DNA from: Candidatus Spyradocola merdavium
GTDB taxonomy: Bacteria > Bacillota > Clostridia > Christensenellales > UBA1750
Direction: 5' to 3'
NCBI GenBank assembly: GCA_018711265.1
Contig: DVIM01000026.1
Location: 13,592 to 77,591 of the forward strand
Length of the DNA: 64,000 nt
In this document: positions 13,568 to 24,082 of the stretch, piece after piece
How the letters are laid out: each line of letters starts with the position of its first letter
Numbering within the stretch: the stretch's first letter is position 1
Made by a program: the position numbers and the translations under genes
Notes under the pieces: generated by a model
Database searches by the model: none
What the model saw: the letters and a program-made list of their open reading frames with translations, nothing else
Told to the model about the DNA's origin: nothing

Positions 13568-14877
13568 TCCGTTTCCACCTCCCGAAGGTTCGATTCTGAG
13601 GATTCCAGCATTCTTCTGACCTCGCCCACCAGGTACAGCGACCCGCAGACGAGGACCACGCCCGCCTCCCCGGCCAGGGTCTGCGCCTGCCGCAGGCCCT
13701 GCGCCGTATCCTCCGCCGCAAGGACGGGCTTGTCCATCCGCCCGCGGTAGAGGCCGCACAGCTCCGGCGCGGGGACCGCGCGGGCCATGTGCTCCGGGGA
13801 TACGCAGACCACCGCGTCCGCAATCGCTGCGATCCCCTCCGCGATGGCGGCGACGTCCTTGTCCGCCATGGACCCGGTCAGCACCGCGACGCGCCGGTCC
13901 CGCAGGAAGCTCTGCGCGTATTCCCGCAGCGCGCGCACGCCCTGGGGATTGTGCGCGCCGTCCAGCAGCAGGTTGCCGCGCCACTCCAGCCGGCCGGGCC
14001 AGACCGCCTCCCTTAGGCCCGCGCGCGCGGCCTCCGGGGAGACGCGCAGGTCCTCCGGCAGCAGCGAGAGCGCGGCGAGCGCCGTCACGGCGTTGTCCAC
14101 CTGGTGCGCGCCGGGCAGGCGGATTTCGTATTCCTGCGCGGGCAGACCGGGGAAGCCCGCGGTAAACCGCGCGCCGCGCGCGGAGAGGGCGACCGCGCTC
14201 GGCGGCCAATCCGCGCAGTGGAGAAAGGGGGCCTGCTTCTCCTGGGCAATCCCCCGGATGACGGCGGCGACGGCCTCGCCCTGGGCCTGGAGCACGGCCG
14301 GCCGGCCGGGTTTCACGATGCCGCCCTTGACCGCGGCGATCTCCTCCAGGGTCGAGCCCAGGGTCTTTGTGTGGTCCAGGCCGATGCGCGCAATGACGCT
14401 GACCTCGGGGTGGATCACGTTGGTCGGGTCGTGCGTCCCGCCAAGGCCCACCTCGATCACGGCCGCATCCACCTTCTCGCGCGCAAACCAGGTCAGCGCA
14501 ATCGCGGTGCCGATCTCAAAGACCGTGGGGAATCCTTCCCCGCTCTCCTCCATGGCCTGCACGTGCGCCGCGACCTCGGTTGTCAGCGCCGCGAGGGTTT
14601 CGTCCGGGATCTCGCCGCCGTTGATGCGCATTCTCTCATTATAGCGCATGAGGAAGGGCGAGGTGTACAGCCCGACGCGGTAGCCCTGCGCGCGCAGCGC
14701 CGCGTCCAGGAACGCGCAGGTGGAACCCTTGCCGTTCGTGCCCGCGACGTGGATGCACCGCAGCCCCTCGTGCGGATTGCCCAGGCGCCGCAGCAGCGCG
14801 TACATGTTGTCCAGCCCGCGCTTGACGCCCTTGCCATACTTTCCGTGGATGTATGCGACAGCTTGCTCGTAGTTCAC
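13543..14877 (-). CDS. folC: folylpolyglutamate synthase / dihydrofolate synthase
   Basis: ..IHVAGTNGKGSTCAF.. P-loop and Mur-ligase-like pattern. GTG 14877 is preferred: it has a GAGAGGGGAG RBS, and ATG 14898 lies only 2-4 nt from the predicted transcription start. Confidence 0.9.
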   Translation of the reverse strand: MNYEQAVAYIHGKYGKGVKRGLDNMYALLRRLGNPHEGLRCIHVAGTNGKGSTCAFLDAALRAQGYRVGLYTSPFLMRYNERMRINGGEIPDETLAALTTEVAAHVQAMEESGEGFPTVFEIGTAIALTWFAREKVDAAVIEVGLGGTHDPTNVIHPEVSVIARIGLDHTKTLGSTLEEIAAVKGGIVKPGRPAVLQAQGEAVAAVIRGIAQEKQAPFLHCADWPPSAVALSARGARFTAGFPGLPAQEYEIRLPGAHQVDNAVTALAALSLLPEDLRVSPEAARAGLREAVWPGRLEWRGNLLLDGAHNPQGVRALREYAQSFLRDRRVAVLTGSMADKDVAAIAEGIAAIADAVVCVSPEHMARAVPAPELCGLYRGRMDKPVLAAEDTAQGLRQAQTLAGEAGVVLVCGSLYLVGEVRRMLESSESNLREVETECTFCSCP

Positions 14878-15010: not shown

Positions 15011-17656
<2,646 letters not shown>

Positions 17657-17702
17657 ACGATTCAATCCTCCATCGCATCCGGGGATGCAGATCTTTAACG
17701 CC

Positions 17703-17867
17703 TTACAGAAAACAGAGCGTCGCGCCGGCGACCGCCAGCGCCAGGGAGACGAGCTTTGCCGGGATCTTCCAGCGCTCGGGGATGGCCTTGCCCAGCAGCA
17801 TGAGCACTGCGCCGAGCACGAGCAGGACGATCCCCACGGGGTTCAAGCTCAGGAGCCTGCTGAGCAA
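17703..17867 (-). CDS. candidate 54-aa two-helix membrane peptide between the T-box terminator and valS
   Basis: GGAGAGGAGG, then 7 nt, then TTG 17867. Product LSRLLSLNPVGIVLLVLGAVLMLLGKAIPERWKIPAKLVSLALAVAGATLCFL. No family recognised. Confidence 0.4.
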   Translation of the reverse strand: MLSRLLSLNPVGIVLLVLGAVLMLLGKAIPERWKIPAKLVSLALAVAGATLCFL

Positions 17868-17884: not shown

Positions 17885-18149
17885 ATGCAAAGGCGCGCCC
17901 GTCCTCACCAAAAGGACGGGCGCGCCGTGGTACCACCTTTTTTCGCAGGGGCGAGCCTTCCGCTCCTCCTGCCTCTTTGCGCAATATCGGGCGCACCCGC
18001 GCGCGCTAAAGACCCAAGGCCCTTCACGCGCACCCTGCCGCAGGCGACCTTCCGAAACCGGGGGAACCCTGGCGGCCTTTCAGCCGGCGAACCGCCTCTC
18101 TTTCTGGGTCCAGCTTCGTACTCCTCCTGCCTCAACGGGGGAAGATTCA
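17885..18149 (-). promoter_or_regulatory. T-box riboswitch leader (valine specifier GUC) controlling valS
   Basis: Read on the minus strand. Stem I base GCAGG..CCUGC with AGUA and GAAG-GUC-G in the specifier loop. AGAGAGG box. T-box core AAGGUGGUACCACGG (17927-17941) overlaps the terminator GGCGCGCCCGUCC-loop-GGACGGGCGCGCC + UUUGCAU. UGGU fits an A73 discriminator. Confidence 0.8.
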
Positions 18150-18155
18150 GGGAGT

Positions 18156-18184
18156 ATTATACCATTTCTTTTTCCGCCCGTCAA
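18156..18184 (-). promoter_or_regulatory. sigmaA promoter of the valS T-box leader, TTGACG-17 nt-TATAAT
   Basis: Hexamers read directly on the minus strand. A TG lies 1 nt upstream of the -10 hexamer (TGgTATAAT). Confidence 0.75.
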
Positions 18185-18212: not shown

Positions 18213-19655
18213 TTACGGCTTCCAGAGCGTGTAGCGCGAGGGGGTGAAGTTTCCGGCGCGCAGCATGGCGGCGGTATCCCGGACGACCGTCTGCAGGCGC
18301 GCGACGATGGTGTCGAACGTCTCCTCGTAGATGATCTGGATCGTGCCGTCCGCGACGAGCTGGTGCGCCAGCGGCACGAGCAGCCACTGCTTAAAGTTCT
18401 CGATCTGCTCCTCCGACCAGAACTCGCGCAGGGGCTCGTAGATCTCCTCCATGCAGAAGCGGTCGCGCATCATGTAGAGCAGGTTGGAGAAGTCCTCCAG
18501 GTTGCTGCCCGGCTCCAGGGTGAAGAGCATCCGGAAGAAGAGGTTCCAGTCGTAGTCCGCGTTCATCTGCATCATGAGGTGGTCCGCCAGGATGTTGAGG
18601 AAGGGTTCCTCTCCGCGGAAGGGCGCCTCCAGCGCGAGCGGCGCCTCAAAGTCGATGTCCGCCATGGCGATGCGGTTGATGCGCTGGAAGATGTCCATCA
18701 GGCTCTGCGCGGGCTGGTGGGTGATGGGGTTCTGCCGCGCGAGGATGTAGCGGCTCAGGATGTCGCAGGAGCGCTTGAAGTTCAGGGTAAAGCCCAGGGA
18801 GTCGCGCATCTTGCGGAAGAACAGGTCGGAGATGGCCTTTGCGAACAGCGACCGCACGGAGGCCTCGCGCAGATAGCTGTCCTCCGGCTCGCTCTGGTTC
18901 TGGATCTGGTTGTAGATGAGGTAGAGCTGGCGGTCCACGGAGCGCAGGTTGTCATACGCGGAGGAGAGCATCTGCTTCATGAAGCTGTCCATGAGGATAT
19001 AGCTGTTGTTTTTATAGATGATCTCGTGCTCGACCTCGGCCCAGAACACGTGGACCAGGGCCTTGATCTGCAGCTCAAACCGCACGGCGTGGCCCACGGG
19101 CCCGCACATGCCGTCGATGCGGTAGATGGCGTAGCCGTTGTTCTGCTGCTGGGGCTGCACGCCGCGCATCTCCAGGCGGATGTTGGGCTGTTCGGGCTCG
19201 CAGTACAGGCCGTCGGCGCAGCTCTGGGTGAAGCGGTCGCGCAGCGCGTCGTAGAGCAGCCGCTCCTCCTCCAGAAAGCGGCACTGGATGCGCACGCCGA
19301 TCAAATCCGAGAGGTTCTGGATGATGCCCTCGGGGTAGGCGTAGCGCTTGTAGAGGTTCTTGCGCAGGATCTTTTCCCGCAGGCTGCTGTCGCCCTTGAC
19401 GCGGGTGGAGATGTTGACCAGGCTCTCCTCGTGGTCCCGCAGCGCGCTGTGGAAGTAGGCCTGCAGGACGTCCGCGTAGGTTTCCAGGGTCTTGCGGTTG
19501 TCGTTCAGGATCTTGACGGTCTTATCGATCAGGTCAAACACCGGCAGGCGGATCGTCTCGGGGTTCTGGCCGTCCGGCCCCCAATGCTTGTGCTCCGTCC
19601 GTTCCAGATCGTCCAGTCTTTCCGTTCTTTCCATTCTATCCAACTCCGTATTCAT
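18213..19655 (-). CDS. RelA/SpoT-domain (small-alarmone-synthetase-like nucleotidyltransferase) protein with an unassigned ~220-aa C-terminal region
   Basis: Motifs occur in order: [51 protein letters not shown]. The start is either ATG 19655 or Met8 (19634, GGAG RBS). The track ORF start at 19892 runs into the icd gene. Confidence 0.8.
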
Positions 19656-19713
19656 TCTCTCTCTATTGTACCATAGAAACGGCGGCCTGTGCCGCCCTGC
19701 TTTGAAAAAATCC

Positions 19714-21058: not shown

Positions 21059-23545
21059 TTAGGGCATGAAGCTGTCCTGCGCCGGGATCTCGTCGATGTC
21101 GGGGTTTTCGCGCTGCTCCATGTAGTGGGCGATGACGTCCTTGGAGGTCAGCGACGCCACGGCGCCCTTGTAGCCGTTGGCGATGAAGACCACAACCGCG
21201 ATCTCCGGCTCGTCAAAGGGCGCGAAGGCGACGAACCAGGCGTTGTCCTCGACGTCGATGAGGTTGACCTGGGCCGTGCCGGTCTTTGCGCCGATCTGGT
21301 CCGTGTACGGGTACCCGACGAAGTATTCCCGCGCGGTACCGCCGTCCTCGACGGAGATAACGCCGTGCATGCCCTGGCGGATGGCCTCCAGGTAGCTGTC
21401 CTCGACGTCGAGCTGGGTGACGGCGTTGGGCTCCTTGTCGGTGACGACCGAGCCGTCCGCGGAGAGGATCTTGTCCACGAGCTGGACCTCCATCACCTCC
21501 CCGCCGTTGGCGATGGCGGCGATGTAGCGCGCGACGCCGATGGGCGTAACCTCCGTGATGGACTGGCCGATGCCGGTCATGATGGTCTCCGTCGGCGTCC
21601 AGCGGACCTCGCGCAGGTAGGAGTTGAGGGTGTTGAGCAGGTACCGGCTGGAGATCTCCTCGCTGGACAGGCCCAGCTCGTCCATGAGCACCTCGCGGAT
21701 CTGCGCGATCATCTCCGTGCTCTCGTACTCGAGCACCAGGTTCATCAGCTCCTGCGTCACGCGCTCCAGGCGCTCCTCCTCAAAGTTGCGGCCCAGGGCC
21801 TCGCCGGTATCGCGCAGGGTCTTCAGGATCGTGCGCGCGACGTAGTTGGACTTGGAGGACCGCTGCTCCGTGATGCCAAGGCTCGGGTCGTAGAGCACGT
21901 TCTGGTTGCCGACAACGCCCGTGGTCTCCCCCGCAAGCTCGATGCCCGTCTTGGACGTCAGGCCCAGGAGCGAGGCCCACTTGTTGAGGTTGTCGATGCC
22001 CAGGCGGTCGGCCACGGTGTAGAAGTAGTAGTTGCAGGAGTTGGTCAGGGCGAGCGTGACGTTCTGGTCCTGGTGGTTCTGGGGGTAGCGCGTCCAGCAT
22101 CCGGGCGCGTAGGCGGTCTGGTCGTACTTGGTGAAGTCGCCCAGGTCGTCGATCTCCTCCTCCAGGGTCACGGCGCCCTCCTCCAGGCCGGCCAGGGCCG
22201 TGACCATCTTGAAGATGGAACCGGGCGTCGCCTTGGAGGAGATGGCGCGGTTGAACAGGGGCGAGGTGTCGATGTTGTACTTTTCGTTGTATTCGGCGGT
22301 GCTCATGCCCTCGATGAAGTCGTTGGGGTCAAAGTCCGGGTAGCTGGCCATGGCCAGGACCTCGCCCGTGTGCACGTCCAGCACCACGGCCGCGCCCGTC
22401 TCCGCCAGGCGCAGGGGCTCGCCGTCGCGGTTGGCGATCTGCTCCTGGTAGTTCTCCAGTTCGGAGGCGGAGGCGTTTGCGAGCTCCTCCATCTGGATCT
22501 TCTGCGCCTCCTCGATGTTGTACTGCAGGGACTCCTCGAGGATCTGCTGCATCTCGATGTCGATGGTCAGCTGCACGCTGTTCCCGTTGACGGGCGCCTC
22601 GTAGGAGAGCTCGCGCATGACGGCGCCGTTGGCGTCGACCTCGACCTCCTGGCTGCCCTGCCGGTAGGCGACGTTCGCCGAGAGCTGCTCCTCCATGGAG
22701 GCCTCGATGCCGGATACGCCCACGCGGTCGTCCGCGTCATAGCCCAGCGCGCTGTACTGCTCCAGGGTGGATTCCGTGATGGAGCCCATGTAGCCGAGGA
22801 TGTGCGAGGCCAGCGTGCCGCGGGGATAGACGCGCTTTGTCGTCTGCTCGATGGAGGCGCCCGTCAGCTCAATGCTCGCCGCCTCGATCTGCGCCACGGT
22901 GTTCATGTCCACGTCGTAGGCGATGGTCACGGGCTTGGAAAGGTAGGCGTACATCTGCAGCTCCTGCCAGATGGAGAGGATCTTGTACTGCGTTTCGTAG
23001 TCCTGGTCCTCGATGCCGTAGCGCTTGCAGAGGGTGTCGAAGATCTCCTCCTCCGGAACGCTGGTGATGTAGAGATTGCTCCGCCAGGTCTGCTCGCGCT
23101 TGGCAAACGTCTCCTCGTTCTCGGTCAGGAAATCGAGGTAGAAGTTGCCCGCTTCGTCGCGGTGCAGGTAGAAATTCTGCACCGTCTCGCCGCCGTTTTC
23201 CTCCACGATCTCCAGAACCCGCAGGAGGATCTGCGTGTACTCCTGCACGTCCTCGGTGCTGTTGCGCGAGGGATCGCGGTAGAAGGTCACGTTATAGCTC
23301 TCCACGTCGTAGGCCAGCGGGATGCCGTTCCGGTCCAGGATCATGCCGCGCTCGCCCGTGAGCGAATAGGTCTTCATCGTGCGGCTCTCGGCCGTGTCGG
23401 CATAGGTCTGGCCGTCCCGCAGCTGCAAATTCGCCAACTGCAGCGAAAGCGCCCCAAACAGGAGCGCCACCACCACCACGATCGTGACAAATCGGAGGCC
23501 GAAGCCTTTTTTTCCATTGTTTCGATTGTTGAAGCCGCTTTGCAC
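21059..23545 (-). CDS. mrdA: class B penicillin-binding protein 2 (elongation-specific transpeptidase)
   Basis: N-terminal TM segment, PBP dimerisation region, and a transpeptidase domain with SxxK = PGSIFK and KTGTAQ. Directly downstream of mreBCD. Confidence 0.9.
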   Translation of the reverse strand: MQSGFNNRNNGKKGFGLRFVTIVVVVALLFGALSLQLANLQLRDGQTYADTAESRTMKTYSLTGERGMILDRNGIPLAYDVESYNVTFYRDPSRNSTEDVQEYTQILLRVLEIVEENGGETVQNFYLHRDEAGNFYLDFLTENEETFAKREQTWRSNLYITSVPEEEIFDTLCKRYGIEDQDYETQYKILSIWQELQMYAYLSKPVTIAYDVDMNTVAQIEAASIELTGASIEQTTKRVYPRGTLASHILGYMGSITESTLEQYSALGYDADDRVGVSGIEASMEEQLSANVAYRQGSQEVEVDANGAVMRELSYEAPVNGNSVQLTIDIEMQQILEESLQYNIEEAQKIQMEELANASASELENYQEQIANRDGEPLRLAETGAAVVLDVHTGEVLAMASYPDFDPNDFIEGMSTAEYNEKYNIDTSPLFNRAISSKATPGSIFKMVTALAGLEEGAVTLEEEIDDLGDFTKYDQTAYAPGCWTRYPQNHQDQNVTLALTNSCNYYFYTVADRLGIDNLNKWASLLGLTSKTGIELAGETTGVVGNQNVLYDPSLGITEQRSSKSNYVARTILKTLRDTGEALGRNFEEERLERVTQELMNLVLEYESTEMIAQIREVLMDELGLSSEEISSRYLLNTLNSYLREVRWTPTETIMTGIGQSITEVTPIGVARYIAAIANGGEVMEVQLVDKILSADGSVVTDKEPNAVTQLDVEDSYLEAIRQGMHGVISVEDGGTAREYFVGYPYTDQIGAKTGTAQVNLIDVEDNAWFVAFAPFDEPEIAVVVFIANGYKGAVASLTSKDVIAHYMEQRENPDIDEIPAQDSFMP

Positions 23546-23566
23546 TCGCTTCCCCTCCTCGTCGCG

Positions 23567-24082
23567 TTACCACTTCTTGCCGTGGAATCGGAAGATGGGC
23601 GCGCTGATGACGTCCCACCTGTGCAGCCTGCGGATCAGCGCATAGACCGGCACGAGCACCACCGCATTGAGCAGGCCGCAGGCCAGGATCTTCAGGAACG
23701 CATATCCCCAGCCCACCTGCGCCCGCGAAAAGTACAGATAGACGACGGGCACCATTTCCTTGACCACGTAGGCCGCAAGGAGCGCAAGCGCCGGGAGCAC
23801 ATAGCGGTCCAGCCGGAAGCGGAATCCCGCAAGGCCCACCAGCATCCCCAGGGCCATGTATTGCAGGGCATAAAAGCCCATCTGTCCAAAGACGCAGTCC
23901 AGGATCAGCCCCACCGCAAGGCCGCCCACCGCGCCGTAGAGCCACCCTTGCGTCAGCGCCAGGCTCGCCAGCACCACCGCGATCAGGTCCACCCCGACGC
24001 CGCGGACCTCCAGGTTCGCCGCGAGCGTCGTCTGGTAGAGCAGGGCGGGAAGCAGAAGGAGCACGTCCACCACGATGCGCAT
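23567..24082 (-). CDS. mreD: rod shape-determining protein MreD
   Basis: 171-aa polytopic membrane protein immediately after mreC. Confidence 0.85.
   Translation of the reverse strand: MRIVVDVLLLLPALLYQTTLAANLEVRGVGVDLIAVVLASLALTQGWLYGAVGGLAVGLILDCVFGQMGFYALQYMALGMLVGLAGFRFRLDRYVLPALALLAAYVVKEMVPVVYLYFSRAQVGWGYAFLKILACGLLNAVVLVPVYALIRRLHRWDVISAPIFRFHGKKW

Follow-up and report, generated by a model that had tools for sequence, protein, structure and literature searches.

A chromosomal two-domain small alarmone synthetase homologue with a remodelled acceptor loop in Candidatus Spyradocola merdavium

Introduction

RelP and RelQ are small alarmone synthetases (SAS), encoded by chromosomal, stand-alone genes of Firmicutes. 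The residues of SaRelP that bind ATP and Mg2+ were described by Steinchen et al., and a tyrosine on the acceptor side has been termed critical in all (p)ppGpp synthetases (PMC5794853). A further SAS subgroup of Firmicutes was named cloRel in 2011 and listed in Clostridium tetani, C. perfringens and C. difficile; C. tetani NP_781118, C. perfringens NP_562345 and C. difficile YP_001088212 belong to its cluster, and the RSH set given for C. tetani E88 is Rel, RelP and cloRel, with nothing further (PMC3153485). In the literature searched we found neither the name cloRel in other papers on RelA/SpoT homologue (RSH) enzymes nor functional work on cloRel. Alarmone signalling in clostridia, and in C. 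difficile in particular, has been explained by two synthetases, RSH and RelQ (PMC11317968), and a third synthetase is not mentioned in the C. difficile alarmone literature examined. Here we describe a gene from a 64,000-nucleotide stretch (the window) of Candidatus Spyradocola merdavium, positions 13,592 to 77,591 of contig DVIM01000026.1 (assembly GCA_018711265.1). All coordinates refer to this window. We regard the product, with a probability of roughly 0.6 for the reading as a whole, as a small alarmone synthetase of two domains that is cytoplasmic, is inherited with the chromosome and serves endogenous stress signalling, with a guanosine acceptor and a regulatory C-terminal domain.

Results

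A RelP/RelQ-type catalytic half with a conserved donor site

The gene and the parts of its product are as follows.

18213–19655, minus strand: full open reading frame (ORF) of the cloRel-type two-domain small alarmone synthetase homologue, 480 residues plus stop, from the first ATG
19551–19655, minus strand: acidic, lineage-specific N-terminal extension, residues 1–35 (family alignment; predicted local distance difference test, pLDDT, 46–61)
18894–19550, minus strand: RelP/RelQ-like catalytic (SYNTH) core, residues 36–254 (Pfam, PDB sequence matches, Foldseek)
19110–19157, minus strand: remodelled acceptor loop (G-loop), residues 167–182 (residue counts over 258 sequences; alignment to RelP NGYRSLH)
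18216–18893, minus strand: family-specific all-alpha C-terminal domain, residues 255–480, about ten helices (AlphaFold2 model)
18492–18563, minus strand: most conserved motif of the C-terminal domain, residues 365–388 (alignment, residue counts)

Pfam assigns RelA_SpoT (PF04607) to residues 84–217 with E 5.7e-13 and 49.6 bits against a cut-off of 27, covering profile positions 1–111 of 113. No HD, TGS or ACT domain, nor any domain besides PF04607, was found in the 480-residue protein at E ≤ 1. With a SYNTH domain and without HD, TGS and ACT, the protein belongs to the small alarmone synthetases. The first motif occupies residues 83–99 and is followed by the DxxGxR motif (116–125), NGYAIYR (173–179), ELQIKA (194–199) and the last motif (204–215). 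A first-pass annotation, made by a model from the letters alone, had described a stand-alone SYNTH protein of 480 residues with its motifs in this order, GYAIYR in place of the acceptor motif GYxSxH, and neither a hydrolase nor a TGS or ACT domain. The ORF translation and the Pfam search agree with this description in every point.

The core comprises two N-terminal helices and a long helix after the beta-sheet, and its sequence matches to RelQ and RelP in the PDB span residues 55–253. When the family profile was compared with the PDB, RelP and RelQ chains were retrieved exclusively (E 1.7e-10 to 1.3e-7), and no toxSAS chain appeared at E ≤ 1. The full-length AlphaFold model has a mean pLDDT of 85.7, with most of the core above 90, and a predicted template modelling score (pTM) of 0.54. 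In a Foldseek search this model matched RelP and RelQ best (E about 1e-8, target TM 0.63–0.76), followed by CapRel (7ztb; E 9e-5, target TM 0.41) and FaRel2 (E 1e-3).

The catalytic fold, the donor residues RxKxxxSxxxKxxR, the DxxG and ExQ motifs and the ribose-binding His are thus shared with RelP and RelQ. We counted residue conservation over 258 distinct family sequences. R85, K87, S91, K95, D117, G120, E194, Q196 and H210 are invariant in 258 of 258, and R98 is present in 97%. With the roles known from SaRelP (PMC5794853) the donor site reads as follows.

R85 (SaRelP R78): adenine stacking, donor ATP
K87 (SaRelP K80): triphosphate
S91 (SaRelP S84): alpha-phosphate
K95 (SaRelP K88): triphosphate
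R98 (SaRelP R91): triphosphate
D117 (SaRelP D107): Mg2+
E194 (SaRelP E174): Mg2+
H210 (SaRelP H190): ribose

By homology, the N-terminal half (residues 36–254) is identified as the core of a RelP/RelQ-type nucleotide 3'-pyrophosphokinase, in which the predicted donor and Mg2+ site is complete. Since the donor-site residues are conserved in this way, the protein is almost certainly an active ATP-dependent pyrophosphokinase.

In other respects the protein differs from RelP and RelQ. At 473–480 residues it is about twice as long as these enzymes (about 210–260 residues) and carries an additional helical domain of about 215 residues. It reaches only 40.9 bits with the RelQ/YjbM equivalog model (NCBIfam NF053588), for which the cut-off is 320. 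The beta-hairpin that follows the acceptor loop is four residues shorter in the family, and the loop itself is different.

A conserved but remodelled acceptor loop

In the alignment NGYAIYR occupies the place of NGYRSLH or SGYRSYH in RelP and RelQ. The divergence is family-wide and extends beyond GYAIYR, which the first-pass annotation had missed: the consensus is QPQxQ(K)NG(F/L/Y)xI(Y/F)(R/K)IDG, and the family thus has QPQxQxNG(F/L/Y)xIYR where RelP and RelQ have KxxGYRSxH. Among the 258 sequences Q167, P168 and N173 are found in 100%, Q171 in 98%, Arg or Lys at position 179 in 100% and D181 in 99.6%. The position of Y178 is Tyr in 83% and Phe in 16%.

A helical C-terminal domain specific to the family

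The C-terminal domain (about 215 residues) was modelled alone with the family alignment, and AlphaFold2 gave a pLDDT of 88.6 and a pTM of 0.84. Residues 255–480 had no match in Pfam at E ≤ 10, none of significance in PHROGs, where the single match (E 0.12) was dismissed as noise, and none of significance among PDB sequences in a profile search. The model found no convincing counterpart among PDB folds (Foldseek, best E 1.3, TM below 0.27) or viral folds (BFVD, Foldseek, best E 1.6). The first-pass annotation could not place this half in any family, and the Pfam, PHROGs, PADLOC, PDB sequence, PDB fold and viral-fold searches leave it equally without a match. A well-known housekeeping domain, which that annotation had named among the outcomes that together would speak against its own proposal, was not found in Pfam, PDB or Foldseek either.

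Some candidates were considered and rejected. L18 (E 0.65) and APS kinase (E 1.1) came up in the PDB sequence profile search and are insignificant. A displaced HD hydrolase domain was discarded because Foldseek gave no Rel, Mesh1 or other HD structure.

A profile of the C-terminal domain gave 182 matches in 1.84 billion representative proteins. In every near-full-length match (about 445–512 residues) the domain lies at about residues 222–455, behind the same synthetase, and the shorter matches look like fragments. The domain is exclusive to this architecture and is not a mobile module. Its most conserved motif contains N365 (97%), W370 (96%) and F373, F374 and F378 (92–95%). Mean pairwise identity is 29% in the C-terminal domain and 44% in the catalytic half, and the divergence of the two halves is correlated (r = 0.88).

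Members from Clostridium sensu stricto (L004, L041 and others) have about 510–520 residues, with some 50 residues added as a C-terminal tail (e.g. ...ISKSILKYIDKLDEMDKIKAEEAVRLFKIKL) that the query does not have.

The long RSH enzymes Rel, RelA and SpoT share SYNTH chemistry with the query, as well as the idea of a non-catalytic C-terminal region that regulates the synthetase. The query, however, is devoid of HD, TGS, ACT and RIS domains, its C-terminal domain has no fold in common with these enzymes, and its SYNTH core starts about 36 residues from the N-terminus.

A widespread family, probably cloRel

A search of 5.8 billion proteins gave 423 full-length homologues with 85–93% query coverage, typically 445–511 residues long; overall, members have about 445–520 residues and come from Firmicutes. 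At least 578 GTDB species genomes, taking one genome per species, contain a member. Carriers belong to the Christensenellales (Spyradocola, Christensenella, Catabacter, Fimadaptatus), the Peptostreptococcales (Proteocatella, Filifactoraceae), Clostridium sensu stricto (C. tetani, C. cadaveris, C. fallax and others), the Erysipelotrichales and a few Bacilli. Additional searches extended this range to Peptacetobacter, Romboutsia, Paraclostridium, Paeniclostridium sordellii and Clostridioides difficile. The gene occurs in many strains of both C. tetani and C. difficile. The C. difficile member (P0370, 455 residues, representing a cluster of 422 sequences) shares 38% identity with the query across 373 residues, the motif of the C-terminal domain included. 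The family proteins are acidic, with a median isoelectric point of 5.1, and show no hydrophobic or transmembrane segment.

The C. tetani member AAO35055.1 (519/535 residues) is annotated as "conserved protein" or "GTP pyrophosphokinase" and is neither Rel nor RelP. Since C. tetani E88 has only Rel, RelP and cloRel, we infer by elimination that the family is cloRel of Atkinson 2011. Like cloRel, it is restricted to Firmicutes and has SYNTH as its only domain of the RSH set, and C. tetani and C. difficile carry full-length members; the 2011 catalogue, in contrast, describes no C-terminal domain, motif differences or function. The first-pass annotation had overlooked that the gene belongs to a large family which, if the elimination is correct, was already catalogued. 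As far as we have seen, the family to which the gene adds a member has remained uncharacterised since 2011.

Housekeeping neighbourhoods

In the window and in close relatives the gene lies between a divergent isocitrate dehydrogenase gene (icd) and valS. We clustered the flanking ORFs within 3 kb at 82 loci. No neighbour is common to more than one taxonomic clade, and neither a conserved partner nor an antitoxin was found at these loci. Where a clade has neighbours in common, these are housekeeping genes (truB, ribF and icd, for example). Gene order is kept inside a taxonomic clade and not between clades. As for the valS/icd neighbourhood, which the first-pass annotation had proposed to follow in orthologues, close relatives keep the arrangement and other clades have other neighbours. 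By comparison, toxSAS modules (FaRel, FaRel2, PhRel, PhRel2 and bicistronic CapRel) form operons of two or three genes in which the antitoxin gene lies next to the toxin gene and often overlaps it.

At 16 Erysipelotrichales loci the gene stands behind truB and ribF, which have the same orientation. Its start in L010 and L011 (3218–7285) is 10 nucleotides after ribF, and SpoIIIAH-like and Asp23-like genes then follow. This arrangement points to co-transcription with translation-related genes. An Asp23-like gene is located downstream in 12 of the 16 loci. The neighbours are cell-wall genes and a dCMP deaminase gene in Filifactoraceae and Proteocatella, sigF/spoIIAB, directly adjoining, in Bianquea, and the genes for cardiolipin synthase and LtaS, one on either side, in C. 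aciditolerans. At the C. difficile locus (L092, 96–5948) a mobA-like nucleotidyltransferase gene is found 15 nucleotides downstream of the orthologue, and beyond it are the molybdenum-cofactor genes moaA and moaC and a MOSC-domain gene. The molybdenum-cofactor pathway starts from GTP; this neighbourhood may be coincidental.

A search of 50,697 phage genomes detected no full-length member. In 72,556 plasmid records the only carriers are a C. butyricum replicon of 0.7–0.9 Mb and a 2.6 Mb Acetoanaerobium replicon. PADLOC defence annotation gave no match, which is weak evidence as the 2023 library may lack CapRel models.

Downstream of icd, window positions 21059–24082 (minus strand) encode a PBP2-type penicillin-binding protein (828 residues) and, in the position of mreD, a multi-pass membrane protein of 171 residues. 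These genes are an ordinary cell-shape context.

Translation start and expression signals

The following features concern the start of the gene and its boundary with valS.

18213–19634, minus strand: the same ORF from Met8, 473 residues (identity to HIS19746.1; GGAG 9 nucleotides 5' of the ATG)
19665–19673, minus strand: extended −10 promoter element TGgTACAAT of the gene, predicted, 9 nucleotides 5' of the first ATG
18156–18184, minus strand: valS promoter, TTGACG, 17 nucleotides, TG-TATAAT, marking the 3' boundary of the gene
17909–18144, minus strand: T-box leader of valS, a neighbour outside the enzyme gene (RF00230, 61.9 bits, E 5e-13)

The Met8 form matches GenBank HIS19746.1, annotated as a hypothetical protein of Candidatus Spyradocola merdavium, at every residue. 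Met8 is more likely to be the translation start than the first ATG, since GGAG is located at 19647–19644, 9 nucleotides upstream of the Met8 ATG (19634), and since the public annotation HIS19746.1 begins there. The prefix MNTELD, which precedes Met8, is kept in one relative (L012) and counts against a Met8-only reading. The first-pass annotation had offered a nearly leaderless mRNA with Met1 as the start, or else a start at Met8; the latter is favoured and Met1 is less likely. Its −10 element at 9 nucleotides from the first ATG was located correctly, and the extended −10 sequence TGnTAnAAT is conserved in four related genomes.

The N-terminal extension is missing from most family members, which start with MRLPxF. 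Acidic and of low complexity, it varies among close relatives: 35 residues in the query, about 59 in L012 (5001–5180), and an ASGGEP insertion within it in P0001.

Directly 5' of the extended −10 element of the gene, in the divergent intergenic region between icd and the cloRel-type gene, lies a perfect all-GC hairpin of 6 bp (GGCGGC-ACAG-GCCGCC, window positions 19681–19696, minus strand). L012 largely keeps it, with one base changed in the 3' arm, and it is absent in L013 and L014. The hairpin could be an operator or merely a structural element.

At its 3' end the gene is as tightly bounded as the first-pass annotation had stated. Its stop codon (18215–18213) is separated by 28 nucleotides from the −35 element TTGACG (18184–18179) of the valS promoter. 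The same annotation took the gene to be monocistronic, a reading that finds no support in a terminator: none was predicted in the interval from the stop codon to this promoter. The promoter is strong and near-consensus (score 11/12, with the TG extension). The valS T-box is full-length (model positions 1–219 of 219), contains a clear T-box sequence and has a G+C content of 66%. Because its 61.9 bits are below the Rfam gathering score of 93, a default scan overlooks it and an E-value scan recovers it. The leader is followed by valS at 15011–17665.

Between the T-box terminator and the start of valS there is an ORF of 54 residues (window positions 17703–17867, minus strand) with a TTG start preceded by GGAGG. 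The predicted small protein has two hydrophobic helices (MLSRLLSLNPVGIVLLVLGAVLMLLGKAIPERWKIPAKLVSLALAVAGATLCFL) and is 65–80% identical across five related Christensenellales loci, in which its position relative to the cloRel-type gene and valS differs. It has the look of a genuine small gene, and its expression in this window seems to be governed by the T-box.

Discussion

We propose that the enzyme would move the beta,gamma-pyrophosphate of ATP onto the 3'-OH of a purine nucleotide. The acceptor would most probably be a guanosine nucleotide and the product a (pp)pGpp-type alarmone, because RelP and RelQ are the nearest relatives and a Rel hydrolase co-occurs in the listed genomes. The remodelled loop would give the family an acceptor preference or a binding mode unlike that of RelP and RelQ. 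The C-terminal domain most likely controls activity, whether through autoinhibition, through a bound ligand or partner, or through the oligomeric state that it imposes. In the last case it would stand in for the helical tetramerisation and allosteric apparatus of RelQ.

Presumably, the enzyme serves the cell's own stress signalling and is not a toxin-antitoxin or phage-defence module. A role of the latter kind is unlikely, since there is no conserved partner at the loci compared, no full-length member among the phages or small plasmids searched, and since synteny follows taxonomy. A signalling enzyme encoded on the chromosome and maintained vertically agrees better with the evidence than a toxin-antitoxin or defence module. 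The first-pass annotation had held a toxSAS- or CapRel-type defence enzyme and a housekeeping synthetase to be equally possible; this balance is not upheld, and a RelP/RelQ-like enzyme that is neither toxin nor defence factor is favoured.

Several points weigh against a guanosine-dependent synthetase regulated by its C-terminal domain. The acceptor loop differs from that of every characterised (p)ppGpp synthetase, with Gln171 for the Lys of KxxGY, Ile for Ser and Arg or Lys for His. The position of the acceptor Tyr is Phe in 64% of the members, Leu in 16% and Tyr in only 12%, and a Tyr-to-Phe exchange at this position has been used deliberately to cripple RSH enzymes (PMC11782079). The query, with Y175, belongs to the Tyr minority, although its surrounding motif is GYAIYR. 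Just 63% of the family have Arg at the position of R122, the second adenine-stacking arginine (DxxGxR; SaRelP R112). The product of the family members is known by inference only, and the identification as cloRel is indirect. Finally, with a pTM of 0.54 the full-length model does not fix how the two domains pack and therefore does not establish any autoinhibition. Since the Tyr is mostly replaced and its exchange for Phe cripples RSH enzymes, the family must, judging from the alignment, bind its acceptor otherwise than RelP and RelQ do; the conserved Y178 is perhaps a contact.

The chief rival explanation keeps the chemistry and changes the acceptor. Adenosine nucleotides would then yield (pp)pApp, or another small molecule with a 3'-OH would be modified, and the product would be a distinct clostridial signal. 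Such an acceptor would fit a loop that is strictly conserved yet non-canonical, with Gln in place of Lys and with Phe or Leu in about 80% of the members in place of the guanine-stacking Tyr, and SAS enzymes that use adenosine nucleotides or tRNA are known (PMC11782079). We nevertheless consider it unlikely. Both by sequence and by fold the guanosine-specific RelP and RelQ are nearest, and the aromatic residue retained nearby (Y178) could stack on any purine. Furthermore, the (pp)pApp synthetases Tas1 and FaRel are toxins whose partners confer immunity or serve as antitoxins (PMC11782079), whereas no partner was found here. It is likewise doubtful that the family forms a new functional class of RSH enzymes, in which an acceptor other than GDP or GTP would give another nucleotide signal or a modified macromolecule and the orphan-fold helical domain would gate the reaction as a sensor of a ligand or partner.

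A fused toxin-antitoxin or defence enzyme of the CapRel type would place a pyrophosphate on the 3'-CCA terminus of tRNA, and its C-terminal domain would be an autoinhibitory sensor released by a phage protein. CapRel(SJ46) and the toxSAS enzymes FaRel, FaRel2 and PhRel have a SYNTH-type fold, CapRel has the same order of a SYNTH and a non-catalytic C-terminal domain in one polypeptide, and in the family this second domain is of unassigned function, the acceptor loop has diverged and Foldseek still finds CapRel and FaRel2. The structural match is weaker than that to RelP and RelQ, however, and the family profile retrieved no toxSAS chain. The all-helical C-terminal domain is unrelated to the pseudo-zinc-finger antitoxin domain of CapRel(SJ46) and is conserved across orders instead of being hypervariable. 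Housekeeping synteny is stable within clades, an antitoxin neighbour and a mobile or defence context are missing at the loci studied, many C. tetani and C. difficile strains carry the gene, phages and small plasmids gave no full-length member, and PADLOC gave no match. In addition, the acidity of the proteins is a poor fit to RNA binding. Taken with this evidence, a CapRel-type enzyme is very improbable.

Least credible is an attenuated or inactive homologue that would act as a nucleotide-binding sensor or scaffold: Phe or Leu stands where Tyr-to-Phe impairs RSH enzymes and the adenine-stacking R122 is lost in 37% of the members, but pseudoenzymes normally lose catalytic residues, whereas here the Mg2+ ligands D117 and E194 are 100% invariant, the triphosphate ligands are conserved and the query retains both Y175 and R122.

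For this window the result is modest: one more orthologue, from an uncultured bacterium of the chicken gut. The family is a reasonable target for experiments and no categorical surprise. To the entry of 2011 we add a family-specific helical domain without a known fold, an acceptor tyrosine that is not conserved although it was considered "universal", and the occurrence of a full-length form in C. difficile, for which present studies count RSH and RelQ only. With this family, C. difficile, C. tetani, Paraclostridium, Romboutsia, Clostridium butyricum and many gut Christensenellales and Erysipelotrichales have a third RSH-domain protein that is conserved. Should it be active, residual or condition-specific alarmone pools could be due to it, or its product could be a different nucleotide; its C-terminal domain would then be a new regulatory module for RSH enzymes.

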